Source: Escherichia phage Murica. Taken from it: a stretch of 64,000 nucleotides of DNA. Positions 2,921 to 61,989 of this stretch are shown here, piece by piece. The notes beneath the pieces were generated by a model. It saw only the letters and a program-made list of their open reading frames with translations. It did not search any database and was not told the origin of the DNA. Numbering within the stretch: the stretch's first letter is position 1; each line of letters starts with the position of its first letter. The DNA lies in sequence record NC_041871.1; one strand, 5' to 3'. The position numbers and the translations under genes are program-made.

Positions 2921-4105
2921 TTAAGCTTTAGCCAAAATGGCGCTAAACTCTTCACCAAACTCTTTTACAATCTTCATCAGGTTTGGGTATGCTTTGATCA
3001 GCTGAGCAACAATCTTGTCACGCCCTTTACCGATAAGCAAGGCATTTCCTAAGGCATTAGGTTTCATCATCGCCATAAAGACTGAGAATACAAAATCTCG
3101 GTTCTCGTCCTTGAAGTTTTCCCAAAGGAAATCGAGGAAGTTTGCCACGCAGCTGACAAGATCTTCGTCTGAGATACTTGCATTTTCCATCATATTGCGA
3201 ATAGCGATACAACCTTCAGATCCAAGAATCCACAAAATGTCTGGCTGCTTAGGACCTACGTATTCTTTGCAGCCACCTGCCATAATCCGACCGATTTCCG
3301 GTAAATTACGTTTCTTGGTGTGGTAAGTCCAGATCTCTACCGCTGCAGTGTGACCAATAGCACCTTGTAGAAGAACACGGGCCATAGCGTCAGAAATAAT
3401 ACCGCTGTCAAAATCGTGCAAGATGTCAGATGCAGCAACCCAAGATCGTGGTGTGGCAAAAGATGGACAATTAATCTCAGCCATAGCCTCATAATTATCA
3501 ATAGCTGATGGAACTCTTTTCAGATACCCAATTACAGAGGAGTGAACCCCGTTGAGGAATGCGTAGTCCTCAATAAACACCTCTGCATTGCTTGTAACCT
3601 CTACAATGATAAAACGGTTAGCCAGAGGGGCTTCGAGCGCCGAAAGAACCGCACCATCTGTAGAACGGTTACCCGCAGCCACAAAAACAGAACCCTTAGG
3701 GAATGCATAGGTGCCGCACTTGTGGTCAAGCATAATTTGCATTGCAACCTTTTGCAGGTAGTTATCTGCATGAGTGAGCTCATCCAGAAAGATAATTCCG
3801 CTCCAGTCAGGATCCGCAGGCCAAAATTCTGGAATTGCAAACACTGTACGTGTAGTTCCATCCGCTTCTACAGGGATAGGTAGCCCAGATAAGTCGGCAG
3901 GATCTTTATCTGACAGTCGCACGTCAACAAGGTTGTCATCTCGCTCACCGAACATATTATCAGCGATCTGCTTCATCACCTGGCTTTTACCCACACCCAT
4001 TGGTCCCAAAATTAGGACAGATCGGCTATGACGTTGGGCAAACTGAATAATAGCTGGCAACTCACGGACAGTGATTTGACCACTTTCGAATACGTTTCTT
4101 GACAT
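2921..4105 (-). CDS. AAA+ ATPase, MoxR/CbbQ/CobS-like (AAA_5-type)
   Basis: Walker A GPMGVGKS, Walker B IIFLDEL, sensor-1-like VAAGN. 394 aa. Confidence 0.7.
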   Translation of the reverse strand: MSRNVFESGQITVRELPAIIQFAQRHSRSVLILGPMGVGKSQVMKQIADNMFGERDDNLVDVRLSDKDPADLSGLPIPVEADGTTRTVFAIPEFWPADPDWSGIIFLDELTHADNYLQKVAMQIMLDHKCGTYAFPKGSVFVAAGNRSTDGAVLSALEAPLANRFIIVEVTSNAEVFIEDYAFLNGVHSSVIGYLKRVPSAIDNYEAMAEINCPSFATPRSWVAASDILHDFDSGIISDAMARVLLQGAIGHTAAVEIWTYHTKKRNLPEIGRIMAGGCKEYVGPKQPDILWILGSEGCIAIRNMMENASISDEDLVSCVANFLDFLWENFKDENRDFVFSVFMAMMKPNALGNALLIGKGRDKIVAQLIKAYPNLMKIVKEFGEEFSAILAKA

Positions 4106-10273: not shown

Positions 10274-10723
10274 GTGTTGAGCAAACGTGAATGCGACAGC
10301 ATTAGCCTGAATTCTTATAAGAAACAATGGTTTGGGGTGGAAGTTTGCCGACTGCGGCTAGGCTCCTACCTGAACTTCGTTTATTATGAGAGTGACAGTC
10401 GTATCGTTTCTTATGAAGTGTTCTACACTAAGAACACATTCGAACTGCGCCGTAAAGTAGATGGCGGGAGAACTACCACCCAGAATAATTGGGAAACTAT
10501 TCTGCCTCCAGATGTTATAGGAAGTCCCCTGAATGTATCTGAAGATGAAAATCTTATGGTTCATGCTATGATGGGACTTGACAGCTTAGAGCTGGCAATC
10601 TATGATATGTCCATCGAAGCAGTTAAGCTGGACTACATCGAAAACACTTTAGAGGAAGGTATCAAGAAGTTTCTCAGTGAGAAATTAAAAGACCACTTTC
10701 ATAAGGAGCTATATCTGTTATGA
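10274..10723 (+). CDS. hypothetical protein, 149 aa
   Basis: GTG start with AAGGAG 8 nt upstream. Confidence 0.4.
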   Translation: MLSKRECDSISLNSYKKQWFGVEVCRLRLGSYLNFVYYESDSRIVSYEVFYTKNTFELRRKVDGGRTTTQNNWETILPPDVIGSPLNVSEDENLMVHAMMGLDSLELAIYDMSIEAVKLDYIENTLEEGIKKFLSEKLKDHFHKELYLL

Positions 10724-11867: not shown

Positions 11868-12334
11868 ATATGGACTACAGCTACTGCGGGGAAGAAGTCC
11901 CTTTTAATTACAGCAATCTTACCACGAGCAATCCATATGAGACTCGCCACGGCACGCACATCATTGCCATCGACTTTGATGGAACGTTTAATGCGAGCCC
12001 TTTCATCTTCTCCCGCCTGATCAGGGATCTGAAGAAGGAGGGGTGGACAGTCTACCTTGTGACTTTCCGATTCATTACTCAAGACAATGTAGACATTGAG
12101 TATTGGCGCAAGGAGCTCGATGTTGGTGTGTTCTACACAGGTGGTGTTCAGAAGGCAGCCTACCTGGCGCAGTTTGATATCTACCCAGATATCTGGATTG
12201 ATGATTCTCCGGCATGTATTCCGGCTAAGAATCAGTTAGAGTTTGCAATGAAGGAGATTGAGTATAAGTCTGAGGCTAAGCGGAACGGATGGCCCTTTAT
12301 TATTGAAGATTACCCAGATCCTGAACCGGAGTAA
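11864..12334 (+). CDS. HAD-superfamily phosphatase (candidate nucleotidase)
   Basis: HAD motif I IIAIDFDGT (DxDxT) and motif IV IWIDDS. Confidence 0.55.
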   Translation: MNMDYSYCGEEVPFNYSNLTTSNPYETRHGTHIIAIDFDGTFNASPFIFSRLIRDLKKEGWTVYLVTFRFITQDNVDIEYWRKELDVGVFYTGGVQKAAYLAQFDIYPDIWIDDSPACIPAKNQLEFAMKEIEYKSEAKRNGWPFIIEDYPDPEPE

Positions 12335-12339
12335 GAGCC

Positions 12340-12510
12340 ATGAGGCGAAGATATCATTACCTGATGTGGAAGTTATATCAAAATGCTGCCAAAGCCTATC
12401 ATACCATGTTTGGCAATGACGATCACTACATCATGTTACATCTCACCGCTATTGAGCATCACAATGAGTGGATTCATGCAATCGTGGCAGGTGATAAAGA
12501 CTTTAAGTAA
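12340..12510 (+). CDS. small hypothetical protein, 56 aa, not in the supplied ORF track
   Basis: ATG 12340 with GGAG 8 nt upstream, open to TAA at 12508-12510; translated by hand as MRRRYHYLMWKLYQNAAKAYHTMFGNDDHYIMLHLTAIEHHNEWIHAIVAGDKDFK. Confidence 0.3.
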   Translation: MRRRYHYLMWKLYQNAAKAYHTMFGNDDHYIMLHLTAIEHHNEWIHAIVAGDKDFK

Positions 12511-12560
12511 AGTATACCTCAAAAACGTATAGTGCGGCTTTCTAGACGGAGACTGATTAA

Positions 12561-21201: not shown

Positions 21202-21468
21202 TTAAGCTTTTTGCTCTTCGTTTTTAACGTGGTCAGGGTGCTGGCAACCCCACCGGAGCGAGATGAATTTGCTAATAAGCTGGGGGCAAGCTACTGAAGG
21301 CGCGTATATCCACGCATACCATTCAGGTAGCGTATCATTATACCCCATATGAATAAACACCCCAGTCATCACCGCCATGCCTATGTTAGACCATAGCTTA
21401 GATTGGGACACTTTCGTAGGGTCATCAGATGCCGCAACCAGTCCCCATAAAAACTGAGTTAGTTTCAT
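21202..21468 (-). CDS. small hydrophobic protein, 88 aa
   Basis: Two hydrophobic segments (NIGMAVMTGVFIHMGY; WYAWIYAPSVA). Confidence 0.3.
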   Translation of the reverse strand: MKLTQFLWGLVAASDDPTKVSQSKLWSNIGMAVMTGVFIHMGYNDTLPEWYAWIYAPSVACPQLISKFISLRWGCQHPDHVKNEEQKA

Positions 21469-22612: not shown

Positions 22613-22927
22613 TTACCTTTTACTATGCTCTACGAGCATGTGCAAAATCTTTTGTACATCGGCTCTGATGCCGGAGACATCTGTCCTGACATCCTGCTTA
22701 AGGTCGTTAATATCGGCCTCTAGCTTGCTTAACCGGGTCTCTATAACGGAATCAAGTTTATCTTTTGTAACCATACTGTTTTTCACTAAGATGAGGTCTT
22801 TCTCCAGCTCATCCAACCTCTTGGAAATGCCTTTCCATTTGGTGTGCCACTGGTTGAAAGCCCATACACAGATCGGGACAACGGTACCCATGCAGATACC
22901 GTACAATGCCGCCAAATCCAACTCCAC
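22613..22927 (-). CDS. small membrane-anchored coiled-coil protein, 104 aa
   Basis: N-terminal hydrophobic segment followed by a heptad-like charged region. Confidence 0.4.
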   Translation of the reverse strand: MELDLAALYGICMGTVVPICVWAFNQWHTKWKGISKRLDELEKDLILVKNSMVTKDKLDSVIETRLSKLEADINDLKQDVRTDVSGIRADVQKILHMLVEHSKR

Positions 22928-28851: not shown

Positions 28852-28884
28852 GTCACTCCTCCGGTATGAAAATCTCTACAAGGT

Positions 28885-31900: not shown

Positions 31901-32556
31901 GACTCCCAGTTAATGGTTTCGTCAGGACATTTGAGGTACGTTCTTAAATAGTCTAGGATCACCAAGGCCGCGTTATTGGTATACACTTCTTTACTGATAC
32001 GAGGATCATAGCATTTTTTACCAACCTTGACAAGTGTAACGTTTGGCAACCCAAAAGGAAACTTGTTAGGGTCAAACCTGAAGCTGGCACGTAGCCAACT
32101 GATCCCTCTACCTATCATGTCGGGTGACCATGATGGGCAGTGTGTACCCATGAAAGGATCAGATGTTTTTCTGTCGTTATGTAGCTCCCACGATACCAGA
32201 TCTCCATACGAGGAAATAGGATTACCGTCGATAAGTATATCTTCTATACCTTCCAGAGGGTGATTGGCAAGAACAATAGCACAATGGAGGGTTCTGTCGC
32301 TATCCTGCTCCAAAAACGCAAGCAATCCGGATGTGCGTGTCTTCCCATACACTACAGAGCAGGGTGCAGCAGAAGATCTGAGAAGCTTTTGTCTATCTTG
32401 CTGACTTCTGTAAGATTTGTTGCCCTCAAAAATCTTATCCAGAGTTCTGGTGGTAACAGTGTTCAGGCTGTCAGCCAGAGCTGCCTTGGATGCGTTCCAG
32501 TCATAACTTGAAGATCTTGCAGAAGCAACGATGTTATCAATCATTGCAATTGGCAT
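28957..32556 (-). CDS. large tail protein (host-specificity/central fiber-like), 1199 aa, with long repetitive coiled-coil and Gly-rich C-terminal repeats
   Basis: Internal repeats (…IQETN..TTDL.N.T..AI.Q.L… several times); C-terminal SGNFTGAVNATSGTFRGDVYANNGNFRGTIDATGGTFRG repeats. Confidence 0.45.
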   Translation of the reverse strand: MPIAMIDNIVASARSSSYDWNASKAALADSLNTVTTRTLDKIFEGNKSYRSQQDRQKLLRSSAAPCSVVYGKTRTSGLLAFLEQDSDRTLHCAIVLANHPLEGIEDILIDGNPISSYGDLVSWELHNDRKTSDPFMGTHCPSWSPDMIGRGISWLRASFRFDPNKFPFGLPNVTLVKVGKKCYDPRISKEVYTNNAALVILDYLRTYLKCPDETINWESFKEAANICDEAVKNADGTSERRYTINGEFDMDEAPASIMAEMLKACGADLSYVAGKYGLLVGAYYGPATMTLSEDCVCGEVKIYPEASFDKRSNTITGRFTSPTKGYSETDFPSVFVPEWIEKDGERKIIDIDYRFVTSPYQAQRVSAIFLRRARAGRIIEVTCNMRGFKFKPGRYVTMDLPSIGIVGQEMRVLEWEFTKKGGVKVKLRQDAKEWNDATGQLPDSGDVDIPISPSGVAQPQNFRYSVLQAGEVTHGVLAWDNVGTYAQNIVQVRKNGEIVWTAQTVEQFVRVEGLTKGSYTATVVATSYKGGVSPEAYCEFNIQAPEAPVSVEVKQGYFAITLIPHSRDLASVSTQYDFWTSGMTRLPDTSDATVTSKATRMGVGSTWTSEGLQNDKIYYWYIRTTNAFGSSAFVECAAHCYTSIEDLMPQIDAEFKKTETYKELTANLDNAVKEMDKNVGAVNDRVTSIFEELGDTIEGVVRETTEKFTGVNGEISALNSKLVAAQQSFDDKLAAESGRLGSLIETTNRSTVDLVNRKTQALSEQITATQGTLREELKNTESKLNSSIQETNKATTDLLNKTTEAIKQDLVAATGKITKLEDDVQKEVANLQASIQETNSTTVDLVNNTATAIRQELTSAKQEIVDEMGNIDELRATVSNTSKAVTTLEGKINAQWGAKIQVDSAGNKYVAGIQLGMEGSGGQVQSYFMVSANNFAVYNPGNGTATLAFAIKNNQAFLKDAFIENGTISSAKIAQEISSNNYDGNGYHKYGWYINKNGHAQFMDVWVKGNINASSGNFTGAVNATSGTFRGDVYANNGNFRGTIDATGGTFRGRVEASVIRANQFEGAIVAHRTYGDCPPVYNSQQRVCRWRWRYVDNVSGQGKNVTFFFKLNGTLSGSQLNVWIAGHQILAGKKYGNDNNGMCAVGITGLGEQTIDIIVEIYTPWSTSSVTGVTISCPTVIVSRSNSSFQGPWNESHD

Positions 32557-32993
32557 TAATACCTCCAGACATCAACAACTATAGAATCTTTCATGTCGAA
32601 CATAAAGACCCCTTTATCACCTTTCGCCAAAATCTGGTTGTTCCAGAACACACCAGCGGTGAGCCCGTTCAGACCTTCGAAGATAACAATATCGCCACGC
32701 TGAACCTGTTTAGGAGTATCTAGTCGAGTCATAAAGAGATCAAAAACAGTAGGCAGGTGTGTGGTTTTGAAACGGAGCATGCACCATCTTTTGCTTTCCA
32801 ACTCTGTTTTATACGTTCCTTCGAAGTTAGAAAGAAAATCTGTTCCGTATTGGGCATCAACACACTTAGCTGCAAAGGTGCAGCAATCGTGGAATCCCCA
32901 TTCAAAAGGTATGGTGGCCTCTTCGTCAAACACTTTCCACAATCTTTCTTGCCAATCCACTAAACGAGGGTGTGTGCTCATTAAACCTCCCAA
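32556..32993 (-). CDS. tail-associated protein, 145 aa, with FHDCC motif
   Basis: Coupled to the 1199-aa gene; the conserved Cys cluster hints at a peptidase-like or assembly role. Confidence 0.3.
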   Translation of the reverse strand: MGGLMSTHPRLVDWQERLWKVFDEEATIPFEWGFHDCCTFAAKCVDAQYGTDFLSNFEGTYKTELESKRWCMLRFKTTHLPTVFDLFMTRLDTPKQVQRGDIVIFEGLNGLTAGVFWNNQILAKGDKGVFMFDMKDSIVVDVWRY

Positions 32994-42077: not shown

Positions 42078-42755
42078 TTAGTGCGGTCCACTTGTCTCGC
42101 CATCAGGGCAAGAGTGGGTATGACCTTTATATTCTGCATAGAATGAATCCAAATCCACGCCAGCAGCAGTTATAATTCTACCAGATGGGTCTATTGTAGC
42201 ACCATTCATTCTGATATTCCCATCCACAGCAGCTCGCAAATTGGCAGCCCCGTTAGTGAAAGAAAACTCCCCGCTGCTGTCGCACCGTAATGTCCCACCA
42301 GGTGTTTGAAGCTCAAAATCGCCAGAAGGTGTCAGTTTAAAATAAACCCTATCATTCCATAACTCTACGTTATCAGGATCGATCTGTAAGGCGTTTGAGT
42401 CTGAATGAACAGAGGTGATTGCCCACCCTGGAAACAGGCCGTGAGTTTGTTGATCGTCGTTATTGTTTTCATTTCTCTCTGAAAACTGCAATCCTACAAC
42501 ATCTCCAGCCTTAATAGGGAGTGTTAACCTTGCCTTTCCGCTGTTTGCAGACATCACCTGAATTGGAACGTCATAGATAAGAGGGTATCTCTCCACATCT
42601 CCGTCATCAAACGTAGTTTCAGCTATTGGCTGCACGGCTGCAGAAGGTATACTGTAGTCTACACTGACAACTCTGGCCCTGATACTGGTGTGGTAGTCCC
42701 TCATTATTTTTTCTATAAAAGATCTTACAGCAGCATCTTTCCTATTTATTGCCAT
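42078..42755 (-). CDS. baseplate central spike (gpV/gp5-like)
   Basis: C-terminal apex motif YKGHTHSCPDGETSGP (HxH); size and position. Confidence 0.55.
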   Translation of the reverse strand: MAINRKDAAVRSFIEKIMRDYHTSIRARVVSVDYSIPSAAVQPIAETTFDDGDVERYPLIYDVPIQVMSANSGKARLTLPIKAGDVVGLQFSERNENNNDDQQTHGLFPGWAITSVHSDSNALQIDPDNVELWNDRVYFKLTPSGDFELQTPGGTLRCDSSGEFSFTNGAANLRAAVDGNIRMNGATIDPSGRIITAAGVDLDSFYAEYKGHTHSCPDGETSGPH

Positions 42756-44151: not shown

Positions 44152-45063
44152 TTATTTCCCGTTAACTTTGTTGTAGTTTCCCTGCTCAGATGGGACTATG
44201 GTAGAAGGTCTTCCATATTCCTGATAATACCAATCCGCAGCCGATTGGGTAACACCGTTTTCATCTGTCCACATCATAGATTTGTATGGCTGCCACTCCT
44301 CTGCAGCGTTTGTGGATGCAGTGTCTGCGAATGCTCCTGTGTCCCTCTTGTTACCTACGTTACTACCATTCTTACAGTCGTTGACAGCGCCTTTTTGTTG
44401 GGTCTTGCCTACTTTCTTAGGATTGCTGTATACAGTTGCATTAACAACCTTATTCAAGTAGAATGTGCGGAACTCTGTAAGTTCTACATCAAACACCATT
44501 GCAGCGCCTTCACCAACAGACTTGTTGGCAGAAAGACTGGTTATGATGTAGTTCTCAAGAAGTCTCTCCTCGGTAACCAAAGAAACCAACTGTCGCTTAT
44601 TGATAATCTCAGTCAAAGCCTCCAATGCAGCGCCTGGTCGCATAGATGCTGCAGGGTTTTTAGAGTCAGTATTCCTATCAATGTAGTTTTGCTCATAGAT
44701 TATGTGTGGGGATGTATTTACCCTACCAGTAAAAGAAAATACACCATCTTTAATTACGGCGTGGTCTGACAGGGTAGATTTATCTTCCACCGCAAACCCA
44801 GTCTTATCAACAGAATGTTTGAAAGAGTAATTCTCAACCTGATCGAAGATAATGGCAAGATCGTTAGTAAAGTTTTTACCCTTCATCTCCGTATTGCGAC
44901 CGCCATAGTTAAGACCGCTGACAAACATAGTGTACTTTACATCGCTTTCAGTTTGCTGCTCTGCCTTTTCAGCCTTTGGAGATTTAACCTCTTGAGGCTT
45001 GTACAGGTCTTTTTCATCAACTATATTGCTTGGCATAACCTCTCCAGGACACTCCGATACCAT
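44152..45063 (-). CDS. putative tail protein, 303 aa
   Basis: First gene after the tape-measure terminator. Confidence 0.35.
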   Translation of the reverse strand: MVSECPGEVMPSNIVDEKDLYKPQEVKSPKAEKAEQQTESDVKYTMFVSGLNYGGRNTEMKGKNFTNDLAIIFDQVENYSFKHSVDKTGFAVEDKSTLSDHAVIKDGVFSFTGRVNTSPHIIYEQNYIDRNTDSKNPAASMRPGAALEALTEIINKRQLVSLVTEERLLENYIITSLSANKSVGEGAAMVFDVELTEFRTFYLNKVVNATVYSNPKKVGKTQQKGAVNDCKNGSNVGNKRDTGAFADTASTNAAEEWQPYKSMMWTDENGVTQSAADWYYQEYGRPSTIVPSEQGNYNKVNGK

Positions 45064-56403: not shown

Positions 56404-57960
56404 TTAATTTTCCATGTTGGATATGGAATTATCTCTGGTTGATGACATCTTAGAAGTGCCGTTACCAGTGGATCCTGCAGCCATTCCATCACCAGCTCTA
56501 CTGATGTCCTGGCCCAAGAGCTTCATCAGCTCTTCCTGATCCATGTCCTCGTCAAATCTTTCATCAAACCCACCTACTTCAAGAATCTTATTAATTACTG
56601 CAGGAGTTTTTGGCAAGTAACCTACAGCACCGATCCTCTGGACAAACTTGGAGAAGCTCTCCATGTCCACCTCTTCAATCAGACCAGGTTTCAGTTTAGG
56701 CATATCATCATCTTCAAGGATGATACCATTCAATGCCAGAAGTTGTGGAATAAGATCTTTGTTGAAGGCTTCAGTGATAATATCTATATCACGCTGAACA
56801 AAATGACCATGGATAGACTGTTTTGACTCAGACAGAGAGAAGGATCCAACGTTATCGTTACCGAGGTTAATAAAGCCAGCACCGAAACGGTCAAGAATCG
56901 CCTTCTTACGGGCATCAATCAAATCTTTAGTGGAATACTGCTTACCCATACCGTCAACCCCCTTCAGGGTCATGGAGTAAAGCTCTTTACCAGACTTATC
57001 TCTATCAGACGGAAGTATAAAGAAACTTTGCTCACCACTATGGGCGTTTGCTGCGTCAAGCATAAGGTCTGCAACCATTCTCCCCTCCATTGAATTCGGG
57101 TCAATGCTGGCCTTGTTCAAAATATTGGAAGGAATTTTCAGCTCAAGCACACCACCAAGGTCTTTGGAACAGCCAACAACCTCAAGGTTTTCAATCAGAA
57201 CTTTCTCACGGAAAGATCTGTAGCAACCTATCATAGGTGACACACCTGCAGGGTTAGATTCTGTTCCTGACAGGGTCATGAGCATAAGCTTTTTAGCAGG
57301 GATGAAAATTTCAGGCTCATTAAAGCCTTTTGAAGGCATTGCAGCAAGAGGTCCAGCCCAGCGTGCATTCTGAGTGTTTAGAAATGCATTAGGTGACTGA
57401 TAAATACCTGTCAGTGTTCTACTGTTCTTGTCAAAGACAAACGGCTCTGATCTGGACAAACTGGCCTGAGGTCGGAATGCAATTTTATCAATAAGAAGCA
57501 TCCCGGCGTATTTACCTTCTTTCTCTCTGCGGTATACTTTCTCAAACAGTGAAAAACCATACTCGTTAAAGGTAGCTGCGCTTCTTGCAATATCTCGAAG
57601 AGTTTGTTGGTTTGCCAAATTACGCAAAGAATACTCTATAAGCTCTGCAGCTTTCTTAGAGTCTTCACTTTTAACATTATAAAGGATCTTAAAATCATTG
57701 AATGCTTTCGTGATGAAAACATATTTTGTATCTAAGGCAGTAGCAACTGTGGAATCACATTTCATAGTCTCCACTGTAGCAATCAGCTGAGGCCAACGCA
57801 ATTCCTCAACCATCATAGATTGCGATTCTGCCATAATTTGGGAAAGTGCGCCAGAACCGATCTCACTCATACGAACATTATGAGTTGGTGCGCCTGCGTT
57901 CCCAGATTTATTCACAGTTTTGGCTGTGGCGTTGTGTTTCCTGCGGTTCTTTTTGGACAC
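56404..57960 (-). CDS. portal protein, 518 aa
   Basis: Size and position immediately downstream of the large terminase; acidic C-terminus. Confidence 0.6.
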   Translation of the reverse strand: MSKKNRRKHNATAKTVNKSGNAGAPTHNVRMSEIGSGALSQIMAESQSMMVEELRWPQLIATVETMKCDSTVATALDTKYVFITKAFNDFKILYNVKSEDSKKAAELIEYSLRNLANQQTLRDIARSAATFNEYGFSLFEKVYRREKEGKYAGMLLIDKIAFRPQASLSRSEPFVFDKNSRTLTGIYQSPNAFLNTQNARWAGPLAAMPSKGFNEPEIFIPAKKLMLMTLSGTESNPAGVSPMIGCYRSFREKVLIENLEVVGCSKDLGGVLELKIPSNILNKASIDPNSMEGRMVADLMLDAANAHSGEQSFFILPSDRDKSGKELYSMTLKGVDGMGKQYSTKDLIDARKKAILDRFGAGFINLGNDNVGSFSLSESKQSIHGHFVQRDIDIITEAFNKDLIPQLLALNGIILEDDDMPKLKPGLIEEVDMESFSKFVQRIGAVGYLPKTPAVINKILEVGGFDERFDEDMDQEELMKLLGQDISRAGDGMAAGSTGNGTSKMSSTRDNSISNMEN

Positions 57961-58062
57961 AAGCTTTACCCCTCAAAACAGTATAACAAAATAGCCCTCG
58001 TGTTAGAGGGCTAGTATCTCCGATTACTCTATTCTACCACATCTAATTAAGATTGGCAACAC

Positions 58063-59610
58063 TTAGATAAAACGCTTGAACATAGAAGGTGATGAGATTG
58101 ATGGAATCACACAAGGAAGTGCTACCTCCTCTTTCTCCAGGAAATTAATCGCAGAAGCTACACAGTCTGCCCAGTCGTCTTTTCTGTTAAATGTTGATCT
58201 TTCTCCGTTGAATTTTTCAAGTTCAGTCAGAAATGCTTCCAGAGTATCAGGATGGAAACTGGATTTTACAATCCTCACCATTCCTTGTTGTGCAAGATTG
58301 GCAAAAGGTGAGAACCTTGTCAGTTTAGATTTGTTGGAAGGCATTGGGTCTTCTTCAACCCTGAACCCTTCGGCGAGCAAGGATCTGGATGAGGTTAAGA
58401 ACTCACTCTTACCTGCCTGACCAGGGTCCACAGAGAATACGATTATGCAATCATCACCATCAAACTGCGCCTGTTTCCTGATGATCACATCTCGTTCACC
58501 AGCCTTTTTACAGAACTTGCCTTCCAGACCTGTGGAATACCTCCCGTCATCCACGTTCTCAGGACAATAATCACCGGACAGGTAATAAAAGCCGTCGCTA
58601 TCTTTACTTACCTTAATACTGGCGGTAAAGTCAGGAAATTTATTACCGGAAGTTCTCTCGGTTCCTGCCTTATCCCATGCCCTGCAAGATACTGATCCAA
58701 TGGGTACTCTATCGGCATCACGAAGGAAAGATCTTTGAAAATAGTTTGCACCCTCAGGCTTTGCAAACCAGTTACCATGAAGAAGCTGAGCTTTTTCCAG
58801 TTCCGGCAGACCTTCAAGGAAAGCAAGGTATTCTGGGTTGTCTCTTAAGCAGACAGGATTATCGAATATTGTTGCGCCTATAAACGAGAATGACAACGGT
58901 CTTGGCTTGATCTCTACGCCAAGTCCGTTAACCGTGGTGTATTTCTCTATCAACTCTTCTTTAGAGTCTCCCCAGATAAATTCACCGTCGCGTCGGATAA
59001 AATATCTTTTCTTACCGCATTTCTCCGGATCTGGATACCCTTCATCGTCCAACCACCATCTAACCAGTTTGGCAAGCATGTGTTCTGAATCGGGGTTACA
59101 GCTGATAACCATTCTTGATGGATACTTTGACTGAGATCGCAGACGAGACATCAGATAGTCTATCTGCTCCCATTCGAACTGCGTGCCCTCATCGAAGCAA
59201 ACCATGGTGTACTCAAGCCCCTGATGGTTAAGCTTATCTTGTACATACTCCATATGGCAGTATTTTACAACAGCTCCCTTTTTGCTTCTATCCCACTTAC
59301 CAGTGTTCGGATCAAACCGTGGAAAAATGAACTTATGATCCTTCTCTCTGAACTTTGGCTTAATGTTTTCAGGCAGATCACTGTAAATAGCTACTGCTTT
59401 AGGCCATAGTCCACCCTCACCTTCCAACTGTGGGGTTGTTCTTCGGAACATAACCACAGAGCTGTGGGGGTCATCAATAATTTTAAGTGGCATCAACTGC
59501 AAGAGGAACGACTTGCCAGACCCTGCGGCACCGCCGATTACCAAAATATCTGCATCGTTTTCTAGGATCATCTTCTGCTTTTCAGAACACGGTCCGTAAA
59601 TCTTAGACAT
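58063..59610 (-). CDS. terminase large subunit
   Basis: Walker A GGAAGSGKS near the N-terminus, Walker B-like MVCFDEGTQF, C-terminal nuclease-like region with acidic residues; 515 aa. Confidence 0.85.
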   Translation of the reverse strand: MSKIYGPCSEKQKMILENDADILVIGGAAGSGKSFLLQLMPLKIIDDPHSSVVMFRRTTPQLEGEGGLWPKAVAIYSDLPENIKPKFREKDHKFIFPRFDPNTGKWDRSKKGAVVKYCHMEYVQDKLNHQGLEYTMVCFDEGTQFEWEQIDYLMSRLRSQSKYPSRMVISCNPDSEHMLAKLVRWWLDDEGYPDPEKCGKKRYFIRRDGEFIWGDSKEELIEKYTTVNGLGVEIKPRPLSFSFIGATIFDNPVCLRDNPEYLAFLEGLPELEKAQLLHGNWFAKPEGANYFQRSFLRDADRVPIGSVSCRAWDKAGTERTSGNKFPDFTASIKVSKDSDGFYYLSGDYCPENVDDGRYSTGLEGKFCKKAGERDVIIRKQAQFDGDDCIIVFSVDPGQAGKSEFLTSSRSLLAEGFRVEEDPMPSNKSKLTRFSPFANLAQQGMVRIVKSSFHPDTLEAFLTELEKFNGERSTFNRKDDWADCVASAINFLEKEEVALPCVIPSISSPSMFKRFI

Positions 59611-59897
59611 TAACCTCTCTCCTTTGGAAACAGTGTTCTAATATAGTCTTGCAAAATGATCAATTTAGCTCTATCATTGCTACAAGACAGATTATTATCC
59701 CTCATAATGCCAGAATTCACTGCATCTGGCGCACCTTTCTTCAAAGGCATAGCTTTAGCAGGTGGTTTCATGGCACCTTCCGGGGGTTTAACAATCAACC
59801 TTCCTACATCCGGAGGGTCAATCTTGTATTCTCTCTCAACGCTGGTTGCACACCCACATAATAACAAGCACACAATAAACAGTGTAGCAACTCTCAT
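59610..59897 (-). CDS. o-spanin (Rz1-like outer-membrane lipoprotein)
   Basis: Lipobox-like LLLCGCA after a hydrophobic N-terminus; Pro-rich mature region; coupled to the i-spanin gene. Confidence 0.55.
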   Translation of the reverse strand: MRVATLFIVCLLLCGCATSVEREYKIDPPDVGRLIVKPPEGAMKPPAKAMPLKKGAPDAVNSGIMRDNNLSCSNDRAKLIILQDYIRTLFPKERG

Positions 59898-60292
59898 CTA
59901 CCCTCCTGATTAATACTCTCATTATAAATATCTATAAGCTGATCAGGAAGTGTTGACTTCTTACCCTCAGGTGACTGGAGGTAAATAATCTGCTTTTCTT
60001 TACCTGCCTTCTCAGCCATATTTAATTTATCCTGTAGATCAGAAAGGGATTTTTCAAGGTTTTTAACCTCCTCTGCGTGGCCCATTTTAATTTTGTCGGC
60101 CTGCTTTTGTTGCTGATCAAGGATCCGTTCCCACTTTAACTCTGTTGCTGACACACCTTCTTGGTAGGCATCATTAAGCTTAGAGTTAAACCAATACACG
60201 GCCCCAAGATAAGCTGTACCTATCGCAGCTGCAAAAACTAAACCTTTTATGATCCCTCTATACCTGCTCAGCCATGTTAAAACTGAAATCAT
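59894..60292 (-). CDS. i-spanin (Rz-like)
   Basis: Single N-terminal transmembrane segment (IIKGLVFAAAIGTAYLGAVYWF) followed by a charged coiled-coil. Confidence 0.55.
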   Translation of the reverse strand: MISVLTWLSRYRGIIKGLVFAAAIGTAYLGAVYWFNSKLNDAYQEGVSATELKWERILDQQQKQADKIKMGHAEEVKNLEKSLSDLQDKLNMAEKAGKEKQIIYLQSPEGKKSTLPDQLIDIYNESINQEGR

Positions 60293-60309
60293 TTTAAGGC
60301 TCCAGAAAC

Positions 60310-60340
60310 GAAAAAACCCCGCAGCTATACAGCTAACGGG
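60310..60340 (-). terminator. rho-independent terminator after the 60398-60667 gene
   Basis: CCCCG … CGGGG stem with an inner AGCT palindrome, followed on the minus strand by TTTTTT. Confidence 0.45.
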
Positions 60341-60397
60341 GCGGGTTAAAATTGAGTAACCTAAATAGATCGAAACTAACTAAAAGGAGACTAATAC

Positions 60398-60667
60398 TTA
60401 TCGAGGCACTCGGTGGATGATTCTAACAGTAACTGCGTTTTCATTCATCAAGTATGCATCTACATCTCTGTAAATATAAAACTTCTGCTCACTATCAACA
60501 ACACAAGCTACCGCCCCTTCAGAGTTGTCTTCAAAAAAGACCACCACTGCATCGCAGCTGAGTTCATGATATGACTCTCGAAGATTTACAGCCAGAGGAT
60601 TGAAATCGTCACGAAAATCTACGGTATGGGTTGGATTTACACGCTCTACAATTTTAAGTGTATACAT
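60398..60667 (-). CDS. hypothetical protein (start trimmed to MYTLKIVE), 90 aa
   Basis: Track ORF extends to 60757, overlapping tRNA-Pro; ATG 60667 has AAGGA upstream. Confidence 0.4.
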   Translation of the reverse strand: MYTLKIVERVNPTHTVDFRDDFNPLAVNLRESYHELSCDAVVVFFEDNSEGAVACVVDSEQKFYIYRDVDAYLMNENAVTVRIIHRVPR

Positions 60668-60713
60668 TTTAAAGGTTCCTTTTGTTTGTATATGTTTAAA
60701 GTATAACTGAAAG

Positions 60714-60790
60714 TGGTCTCCACGGAGTGATTCGAACACTCGACCTCCTGATCCCAAATCAGGCGCTCTACCAAGCTGAGCTACGCGGAG
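60714..60790 (-). tRNA. tRNA-Pro (anticodon UGG)
   Basis: Hand-folded cloverleaf: 7-bp acceptor, D arm GCTC/GAGC, anticodon loop TTTGGGA, T loop TTCGAAT, encoded CCA. Confidence 0.7.
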
Positions 60791-60801
60791 TATTTATTAT
60801 T

Positions 60802-60876
60802 TGGTGGCCCTGGGTGGAATTGAACCACCGTCTGGCGATTATGAGTCGCTTGCTTGAACCTTCCAGCTACAGGGCC
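60802..60876 (-). tRNA. tRNA-Met or Ile2 (anticodon CAU)
   Basis: Perfect 7-bp acceptor GGCCCTG/CAGGGCC, anticodon loop CTCATAA, T arm GGTGG-TTCAATT-CCACC, encoded CCA; G1-C72 pair argues against an initiator. Confidence 0.65.
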
Positions 60877-60877
60877 T

Positions 60878-60953
60878 TGGTGCTGATGGCAGGACTTGAA
60901 CCTACAACCTATTGATTACAAATCAATTGCACTACCGATTGTGCTACATCAGC
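60878..60953 (-). tRNA. tRNA-Thr (anticodon UGU)
   Basis: Perfect acceptor GCTGATG/CATCAGC, anticodon stem ATTGA/TCAAT with loop TTTGTAA, T loop TTCAAGT, encoded CCA. Confidence 0.7.
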
Positions 60954-60958
60954 AAAAA

Positions 60959-61057
60959 GGTGCTAGGTGATGGAATCGAACCACCTATGTATTCAACGAC
61001 TACCTCGTCTATTTTCAGGATTAAAAATCCTCGCCCTTGCCAAAGGGCTTACCTAGC
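60959..61057 (-). tRNA. atypical tRNA-like element (99 nt): tRNA acceptor, D and T arms, but no canonical anticodon arm
   Basis: Perfect 7-bp acceptor GCTAGGT/ACCTAGC, D arm GCCC/GGGC, T arm GGTGG-TTCGATT-CCATC. The intervening 47 nt form two small hairpins (AGGAT-TTTTT-ATCCT and ACGA-GGTAG-TCGT). A Lys (UUU) reading needs a mismatched stem and a 29-nt variable region. Confidence 0.4.
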
Positions 61058-61154
61058 TCAGTATGTTGACCATGTTGCTAGTCGGCGATGACGACTGTAA
61101 CATTTGATAATCCGGTTCTGCTTCCGGCTTTCGCTTAATTACAAGGTCAACAAT

Positions 61155-61246
61155 GTGGCGGAGAGTAATGGAATCGAACCATCATCGAGTCATCCTCAAC
61201 GGGACGGTTTTCAAGACCGCTTGAGCACCATTGCTCCCTACCCTCC
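61155..61246 (-). tRNA. tRNA-Ser (anticodon UGA), type II
   Basis: 92 nt, acceptor GGAGGGT/ACTCTCC, anticodon stem GCGGT/ACCGT with loop CTTGAAA, long variable arm, T loop TTCGATT, encoded CCA. A TATAAT -10 lies 7 nt upstream. Confidence 0.65.
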
Positions 61247-61360
61247 TTTATAAATTATACTGATAATGACACTGATTTTCGAGCAGTTAGTGACTAGTAT
61301 AAACGACGATAAATATCAATGCCATTATCTGTATTATTTATGCATCTAAAAATATAAATT

Positions 61361-61447
61361 TGGTGGGGAGTGGTGGAGTCGAACCACCCGAGTCGCAATG
61401 ACAATAGATTTACAGTCTACACCGCTACCTCTACGGGATAACTCCCC
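61361..61447 (-). tRNA. tRNA-Tyr (anticodon GUA), type II
   Basis: 87 nt, acceptor GGGGAGT/ACTCCCC, anticodon loop CTGTAAA, T arm GGTGG-TTCGACT-CCACC, encoded CCA. Confidence 0.65.
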
Positions 61448-61451
61448 AATT

Positions 61452-61526
61452 TGGCACCCCGTACTGGACTCGAACCAGTGTCAACGGCTTAGAAGGCCGC
61501 TGCTTTATCCACTAAGCTAACAGGGC
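61452..61526 (-). tRNA. tRNA-Arg (anticodon UCU)
   Basis: Acceptor with two G-U pairs, D arm GCTT/AAGC, anticodon stem GCGGC/GCCGT with loop CTTCTAA, T arm ACTGG-TTCGAGT-CCAGT, encoded CCA. Confidence 0.6.
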
Positions 61527-61622
61527 ACTGGGTGGCTTTCTTTTACACCTTAGCCGCCAGAAAAGGTGGGAGACCATGTTTACAATATTACACTGTTAAG
61601 CAAAGTTTGTCAAGAAAATATT

Positions 61623-61961
61623 TTAGCTATTGCTAACAGGCTGTATTTCTGTAGTAAATGGCATAAAAGGTGCTGGTTTTTCAGCCTCTTCCACTACCAC
61701 CTCTTCCTCTTCACCAAACATCTCATCATATTCTTCCTGCATTCGGTCTGCCTTATCAAGAACATACTCTGCAATGCTTTGACGAATATTTTGTTTGGTT
61801 TTCGGGTCCAACATCAGCTCTCTTAAAACTTTGTGAGCTTCTGGAACCATCGCTATAAAAGATTCCTTCATATCAAGGATGTTCTTCTCTAGCTGAATGG
61901 CGTTGGACTCCTCTTTCAGAGGTCTGCCTCTACGGCGACGCTTTTTAGTTGTATCCGCCAT
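61623..61961 (-). CDS. small protein with basic N-terminus (KKRRRRGRP) and acidic C-terminal region (start trimmed to MADTTKK)
   Basis: ATG 61959-61961 with GGAGG RBS; the track extension upstream runs into a GC-rich noncoding island. Confidence 0.45.
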   Translation of the reverse strand: MADTTKKRRRRGRPLKEESNAIQLEKNILDMKESFIAMVPEAHKVLRELMLDPKTKQNIRQSIAEYVLDKADRMQEEYDEMFGEEEEVVVEEAEKPAPFMPFTTEIQPVSNS

Positions 61962-61989
61962 GTTTCCTCCATTATCACGTGATAGGTGG

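Follow-up and report, generated by a model that had tools for sequence, protein, structure and literature searches.

How does a phage accomplish the last step of host lysis, if its spanin genes stand apart from any holin or endolysin gene? The question is raised by a stretch of 64,000 nucleotides from Escherichia phage Murica (NC_041871.1), which at its full length is here called the window. Immediately before the gene of the large terminase (terL), it contains two small genes that appear to encode the inner-membrane and the outer-membrane subunit of a spanin (i-spanin and o-spanin). In our judgement, the two genes very likely (probability about 0.9) make up the two-component spanin of the rV5 family. 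The other lysis functions are encoded elsewhere; as is shown in relatives, they comprise an essential endolysin of the lambda R type and a dispensable SleB-like hydrolase.

The window is the left 64 kb of an rV5-like (Vequintavirus) genome of about 136 kb. In a megablast search, Escherichia phage FFH2, an rV5-like myovirus of the genus Vequintavirus, proved 99.2% identical in DNA over the full length of 57900-61700, and about 100 further similar genomes were matched by the same segment. The FFH2 record starts where the window does, at the end of rIIA. As annotated references we used the whole FFH2 record and part of phage Bas54 (= MaxBurger, MZ501093.1). Essentiality was taken from published transposon data on Bas54, scored as the number of TA sites with insertions per gene. 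Between the window and Bas54, 95/95 residues are identical in the o-spanin, 128/132 in the i-spanin, 104/104 in a fibre-cluster protein of 104 amino acids (aa) and 87/88 in a neighbouring one of 88 aa. These proteins being near-identical, the Bas54 transposon data can be transferred to the window. The remaining Bas54 counterparts were paired by annotation, length and gene order, not by alignment.

The spanin pair in front of the terminase gene

Only one segment of the i-spanin is hydrophobic; it lies near residues 14-35, with a Kyte-Doolittle value over 19 residues (KD19) of 1.80 at residues 14-32. The flanks of this segment carry a charge of +3 on the N-terminal and of -1 on the C-terminal side, which implies a type II topology (N-in/C-out). 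The rV5 paper likewise reports one transmembrane domain (TMD) in the i-spanin, as called by both TMHMM and Phobius. In PHROGs, the protein matches phrog_4297, an ‘Rz-like spanin’, with 1.5e-49. A single-sequence AlphaFold2 model of moderate confidence (mean predicted local distance difference test, pLDDT, of 72) shows a helix from residue 12 to 99, an unstructured stretch from 100 to 114 and a second helix from 115 to 129. As modelled, the periplasmic domain would be mainly alpha-helical, a long helix being joined by a linker to a short C-terminal one, as is expected of a two-component spanin.

The o-spanin precursor starts with MRVATLFIVCLLLCGC. The stretch LFIVCLLLCGC fits a PROSITE-type lipoprotein pattern, the lipobox being L13-C14-G15-C16. 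Cys16 is the predicted site of lipidation and is followed at position +2 by alanine, hence not by aspartate, as befits a lipoprotein sorted to the outer membrane. The mature protein would be small (80 aa) and rich in proline (9 residues, 11%), both being hallmarks of o-spanins. Its PHROGs match is phrog_1267, again an ‘Rz-like spanin’, with 1.3e-22.

All genes around the spanins lie on the minus strand. At 59894-59897, the i-spanin stop and the o-spanin start overlap by 4 nucleotides (ATGA); a second overlap, TAATG at 59610, joins the end of the o-spanin gene to the start of terL. Shine-Dalgarno sequences precede all three starts, that of the i-spanin being GGAG at 60300-60303. The i-spanin and the o-spanin are the first two genes of a unit that runs into the large terminase, and the three genes are translationally coupled. 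The i-spanin gene is directly followed by the o-spanin gene, which is the order of two-component spanins; overlaps of a few bases (e.g., 8 bp) are classed as ‘separated’ in the spanin census (PMC6139136). The original prediction of a separate-type pair directly upstream of terL is thus confirmed by the lipobox, the membrane segment, the PHROGs matches and the ATGA and TAATG overlaps. The range then given to it, 59610-60667, was too generous: 59610-60292 is spanin, while 60293-60667 holds a hairpin and an unrelated open reading frame (ORF) of 89 aa.

In Bas54 neither gene tolerates an insertion: the i-spanin gene bas54_0001 was hit at 0 of 29 TA sites, the o-spanin gene bas54_0002 at 0 of 19, and both are rated essential. 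The method is calibrated by T4, where t (1/65), e (4/45) and pseT.3 score as essential and pseT.2 shows a strong fitness defect; the T4 spanin genes pseT.3 and pseT.2 thus behave like those of Bas54. The true holins of T4 and Bas37 also score as essential in this way. The genes bas54_0028, 0030 and 0031 accepted insertions with essential genes downstream in the same operon, and so did the endonuclease gene of the terL intron. The tolerance upstream of essential genes makes it unlikely that the essentiality of the spanin genes is due to polarity.

The o-spanin occurs in 144 phage records, all of them Vequintavirinae or mislabelled copies of Vequintavirinae. The closest relatives of the pair are rV5 gp67/gp66, FFH2 ORF66/65, Bas54 bas54_0001/0002 and LL12 gp66/gp65, which belong to the same family with proteins 97-100% identical. 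They share the 4-nucleotide overlap and likewise open the terminase unit. Compared with rV5, Bas54 and LL12, the window shows no material difference except its intron-free terL: the gene is uninterrupted in the window and FFH2 and is split in the other three by one or more introns with a homing endonuclease gene. In the Seunavirus phages PVP-SE1 and FENT2, the order is also tRNA (transfer RNA) cluster, i-spanin, o-spanin, terL and portal. Overall identity to these two is 25-38%; the G-C of the o-spanin lipobox is invariant, and conservation extends to the C-terminal half of each protein. The gene lists of FFH2 and Bas54 name no other spanin candidate.

Much of this was on record. The FFH2 RefSeq entry labels both genes ‘Rz-like spanin’, and the genome maps of the BASEL collection of E. 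coli phages open at this very i-spanin gene. The spanin census lists an rV5 family with the i-spanins of rv5, 2_JES-2013 and FV3, and for the o-spanin also Av-05, 4MG, PVP-SE1 and GAP31 (PMC6139136). For Pectobacterium phage CB7, it was described that the Rz stop overlaps the Rz1 start as in T4, and that the spanins adjoin the terminase gene outside any lysis cassette (PMC7344957). The announcement of LL12 names the endolysin (gp90), the i-spanin (gp66) and the o-spanin (gp65), and calls a holin not identifiable (PMC6658697). The spanin pair, its pre-terminase position, the dispersal of the lysis genes and the predicted signal peptide of the SleB-like protein have all been published for the subfamily. 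With the spanin family, its position and the dispersal in the prior literature, the finding as first written has to be regarded as already described.

About 18 records deposited under ‘Campylobacter phage’ (MG0656xx, e.g., MG065654.1) are 97-99% identical to E. coli Vequintavirus in this region. Contamination or wrong labelling probably accounts for them.

Table 1. Positions of the spanin genes and of other features discussed, in window coordinates
Feature	Position	Strand	Basis
i-spanin gene, 132 aa	59894-60292	minus	ORF, one hydrophobic segment, phrog_4297 match
o-spanin gene, 95-aa precursor	59610-59897	minus	ORF, lipobox, phrog_1267 match
Large terminase gene (TerL)	58063-59610	minus	Pfam Terminase_6N 6e-20, Terminase_6C 5e-6
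Intrinsic-terminator-like hairpin	60311-60342	minus	11 pairs, one bulge, then U6; RNA fold centroid -16.9 kcal/mol
89-aa ORF	60398-60667	minus	phrog_8729, a function-less PHROG; no membrane segment; not a lysis protein
Seven tRNA genes, cluster upstream of the spanin-terminase unit	60714-61526	minus	tRNA search, synteny
SleB-like cell-wall hydrolase	1980-2480	minus	Pfam Hydrolase_2 2e-19
rIIA homologue, directly downstream of the SleB-like gene	1-1983	minus	phrog_612 4e-124
104-aa fibre-cluster protein	22613-22927	minus	One strong N-terminal membrane segment (KD19 1.91), phrog_5345
88-aa fibre-cluster protein	21202-21468	minus	Weakly hydrophobic (maximum KD19 1.05), phrog_1322 ‘membrane protein’

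Muralytic enzymes and competing readings

Between 56 and 64 kb, no real ORF has a membrane segment or a muralytic domain that would qualify it as a holin or an endolysin. In this respect the original prediction was right, and the dispersal of the lysis functions that it assumed also holds: in FFH2 the endolysin is encoded 10 kb away from the spanins, and the SleB-like gene of the window stands beside rIIA. The FFH2 endolysin is ORF82 (71544-72014, plus strand, 156 aa); it lies about 6.3 kb past the point that corresponds to the end of the window, on the strand opposite to that of the spanins, and belongs to another transcription unit. Matched to the lambda lysozyme structures 1AM7 and 3D3D it yields an E-value of 3e-56, with the SEGT catalytic region kept; neither a hydrophobic N-terminus nor a signal sequence is found in ORF82. 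Endolysins of the lambda R type are present in the Vequintavirus genomes, and purified LysECP26, the homologue of phage ECP26, proved lytic for all 29 Gram-negative strains on which it was tried (PMC9728275). In Bas54, the lambda-type endolysin bas54_0202 is essential (0/24). A contiguous holin-endolysin-spanin cassette of the lambda type is thus absent from 56-64 kb, and no canonical cassette lies just outside the window either, the endolysin being non-adjacent and on the other strand, and its small neighbour dispensable.

Within the window the SleB-like hydrolase offers itself as a muralytic enzyme. It could be held to drive lysis on its own, being exported by Sec and activated on membrane depolarisation, so that no holin-released endolysin would be needed. 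Enzymes that carry an N-terminal export signal are known among the Sec-exported and signal-anchor-release (SAR) endolysins, e.g., Lys44 of fOg44 and Lyz of P1. The N-terminus of the SleB-like protein is indeed hydrophobic (KD 2.34), with possible signal-peptidase sites at VVA/A or VAA/P. Signal-like N-termini with motifs of the A-x-A type are conserved in the homologues of three genera, Vequintavirus, Certrevirus and Mydovirus, and make export via Sec plausible. Aligned to the SleB structures 4F55 and 4FET, the protein keeps the catalytic Glu motif Y-x-E-[AS]-R-G. The CB7 paper reports a SleB-like protein with a predicted signal peptide for all genera of the subfamily and its toxicity in E. 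coli, and cites an implied lysis role for the homologue of phage CR3 (PMC7344957).

Yet the reading is improbable. The Bas54 counterpart, bas54_0065 (paired by annotation, its length of 501 bp and its position before rIIA), was hit at 32 of 36 TA sites and is non-essential, in contrast to the signal-less endolysin bas54_0202 without a single hit; the SleB-like enzyme is therefore not required for host lysis according to these data. The genes bas54_0066 (rIIA, 90/101) and bas54_0067 (rIIB, 56/59) are non-essential as well. The SleB-like enzyme differs from the Sec-exported and SAR endolysins in that the phage can dispense with it and makes an essential cytoplasmic endolysin besides. In T5-like and PB1-like phages, too, a member of the SleB family is found as second hydrolase. 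The small membrane-protein gene that follows the SleB-like gene in Certrevirus and Mydovirus might speak for an export-based scheme; Certrevirus phage POP17 and a Klebsiella relative each have a hydrophobic ORF there, of 51-62 aa (2923-3111 and 2952-3107 of the extracted loci). In the window, however, no such gene lies behind the SleB-like one, the stop of which overlaps the rIIA start (1980-1983).

We regard the SleB-like protein as an accessory muralytic enzyme, which Bas54 can do without. Of what had been proposed for it, Sec export agrees with the signal-like N-terminus; that export replaces release by a holin is not supported, because the enzyme is dispensable and an essential cytoplasmic endolysin exists. 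Nor did its implied role as the lysis enzyme survive. It looked like the sole lysin because the edge of the window hid the lambda-R-type endolysin. Two structural genes of the window, at 42078-42755 and 32556-32993, which BASEL names ‘tail lysozyme’ and ‘cell wall hydrolase protein’, yielded no muralytic domain in Pfam.

Still further from likely is the view that the pair represents another envelope system built of a membrane protein and a lipoprotein, e.g., for superinfection exclusion or receptor masking, and that it is essential in Bas54 via terminase expression: the pair has no homology to validated spanins, its spanin role is predicted, and insertions into genes translationally coupled to terL could lower TerL synthesis, but the pair shows the architecture of two-component spanins, exclusion genes are typically dispensable whereas these received no insertion, insertions elsewhere upstream of essential genes of the same operon were tolerated, and the pair keeps its position across Vequintavirinae with no rival spanin named for FFH2 or Bas54.

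Some observations nevertheless weigh against the assignment of the pair as the rV5-family spanin. No sequence similarity to the T4 spanins was detected for either protein. The ‘Rz-like spanin’ names in PHROGs rest on the same kind of prediction as ours, and for the members of the rV5 family the spanin role is predicted throughout. The only periplasmic cysteine of the pair is Cys72 of the o-spanin (codon 59682-59684), as the i-spanin is free of cysteine, and in the o-spanins of PVP-SE1 and FENT2 it is replaced by Ala or Gly, the i-spanins of these two phages being free of cysteine as well; therefore, the covalent link between dimers known from lambda and T4 may be absent. About 4% of the two-component pairs in the spanin census lack cysteine (PMC6139136), and the rV5-like subfamily may belong to this fraction without disulfide links. 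A strong hairpin stands just upstream of the spanin-terL unit, without a late-promoter motif nearby. Finally, the lambda-type endolysin of the Murica genome itself is predicted from relatives, as it would lie beyond the 64 kb.

These points do not deter us from preferring the rV5-family two-component spanin. The N-terminal segment would hold the i-spanin in the inner membrane, from where its long helix would cross the periplasm; the o-spanin would receive its lipid at Cys16 and be directed to the outer membrane. To judge from their topology and from lambda Rz/Rz1 and T4 PseT.3/PseT.2, the two may bind to each other via their C-terminal parts and form periplasm-spanning complexes threaded through the peptidoglycan mesh. 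A putative holin would release the lambda-type transglycosylase; such release is assumed because the enzyme is essential and lacks a signal. Degradation of the wall would then free the spanin complexes, and fusion of the inner with the outer membrane would be the last step of lysis, with the SleB-like enzyme as an accessory.

The comparison with known systems is instructive also for what differs. Lambda Rz/Rz1 has the same predicted topology and presumably the same membrane-fusion mechanism; Rz1, however, is embedded in Rz within an S-R-Rz/Rz1 cassette, whereas the genes of the window are separate and part of no cassette. T4 PseT.2/PseT.3 share no sequence similarity with the pair, PseT.2 needs two cysteines whereas the o-spanin of the window has one that is not conserved, and the T4 genes are found among early and middle genes near pseT instead of before the terminase. 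In the podoviruses SP6 and VP4, as cited in the CB7 paper, spanin genes also stand beside the large terminase and not in a lysis cassette (PMC7344957); these are unrelated phage groups with unrelated spanin families.

Candidates for the holin

When the search for holin and endolysin genes was extended to the rest of the genome in the relatives, the lambda-R-type endolysin came to light, and no holin was identified. The late structural operon encodes, besides the spanins, only two proteins that look membrane-type, the 104-aa and the 88-aa protein of the fibre cluster (Table 1), and both are essential in Bas54. The 104-aa protein is identical to bas54_0037 (1/20). Behind its membrane segment come a flank of positive charge and a C-terminal part that resembles a coiled coil; the protein is conserved across all genera of Vequintavirinae.

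The counterpart of the 88-aa protein is bas54_0039 (0/19). In all of the 367 phage records that contain the protein, fibre genes are close by; its homologues have a conserved core and charged, acidic/basic C-terminal tails of variable length. It had been presented as a hydrophobic protein of two segments. It does exist within the fibre cluster, but its hydrophobicity is weak, and TMHMM and Phobius call no membrane segment in it according to the rV5 paper. It has no match in Pfam, and a search for homologues yielded 13 close relatives whose names, apart from one ‘DUF2644’ label, were uninformative.

For neither protein is a holin family found in Pfam, NCBIfam or PHROGs; there is only a sub-threshold XhlA match of 20 residues. 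Neither was found by mass spectrometry in rV5 virions, as stated in the rV5 paper.

In T4, the holin gene t directly follows the fibre gene 38. The placement of the 104-aa and the 88-aa protein parallels that of T4 t, and one of them or both might be the rV5-like holin, a tentative proposal that we rather doubt. The same data would fit a role in fibre assembly just as well.

Other candidates were tried and rejected. The product of rV5 gp129 (= FFH2 ORF119, bas54_0164) has two membrane segments, yet its gene is non-essential (17/19). So is the ‘putative holin’ of BASEL, bas54_0115 (= FFH2 ORF166), with 27 of 28 sites hit. In FFH2 segment coordinates, the equivalents of these two published ‘putative holin’ genes are located at 44440-44664 and 12150-12521, respectively. 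The ‘putative holin’ of JLBYU08, a protein of 149 aa (window 10274-10723, plus strand), lacks any hydrophobic segment, and its PHROG match is a ‘tail protein’; the holin annotation looks wrong. The 68-aa protein encoded after the endolysin (FFH2 ORF83, bas54_0201) has a hydrophobic stretch at its N-terminus, yet is non-essential (7/8).

Upstream neighbourhood and significance

The terminator-like hairpin ends about 20 nucleotides upstream of the i-spanin start and separates the 89-aa ORF from the spanin-terL unit; it is absent from the terminator list of the rV5 paper. A promoter for the unit was found in 60293-61584 neither by a simple scan nor with the rV5 late-promoter motif. With one mismatch allowed, the core of this motif, TGGTAAAATA, has 20 matches in the entire window where 5.9 are expected. 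The minus (coding) strand of the structural module carries 18 of them, e.g., at 28884, 34155, 48309 and 51831. Between the i-spanin and a promoter-like site of the tRNA genes at 61585-61613 there is no match to TGGTAAAATA; the hairpin stands in that interval. The counterpart of the 89-aa ORF, bas54_0227 (89 aa, the last gene before the i-spanin, paired by position, order and length), is non-essential with 17 of 19 sites hit.

One tRNA-like gene, at 60959-61057 on the minus strand (97-99 nucleotides), is odd in that the anticodon proposed by ARAGORN has four bases (atcc) and is given no amino acid. Its Rfam tRNA score of 35.5 bits is above the gathering score, and other records list it as tRNA-OTHER or tRNA-TERM. 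Further upstream, a protein of 113 aa (61623-61964, minus strand; PHROG 3330) combines an Arg-rich, AT-hook-like N-terminus (KKRRRRGRP) with a very acidic C-terminal part. Its counterpart bas54_0220, paired by position, order and length, is essential (1/20). As the gene lists of FFH2 and Bas54 name no small terminase, the 113-aa protein is a possible candidate for it.

What do these findings mean? They first call for caution: a window of 64 kb hid the real endolysin, and the one muralytic enzyme visible in it was mistakenly given the leading role. They also bear on a group that is widely used in phage therapy and in biocontrol cocktails, the Vequintavirinae, for which no holin is known. The window, together with the published essentiality data, narrows the candidates for this holin to a few small essential proteins.

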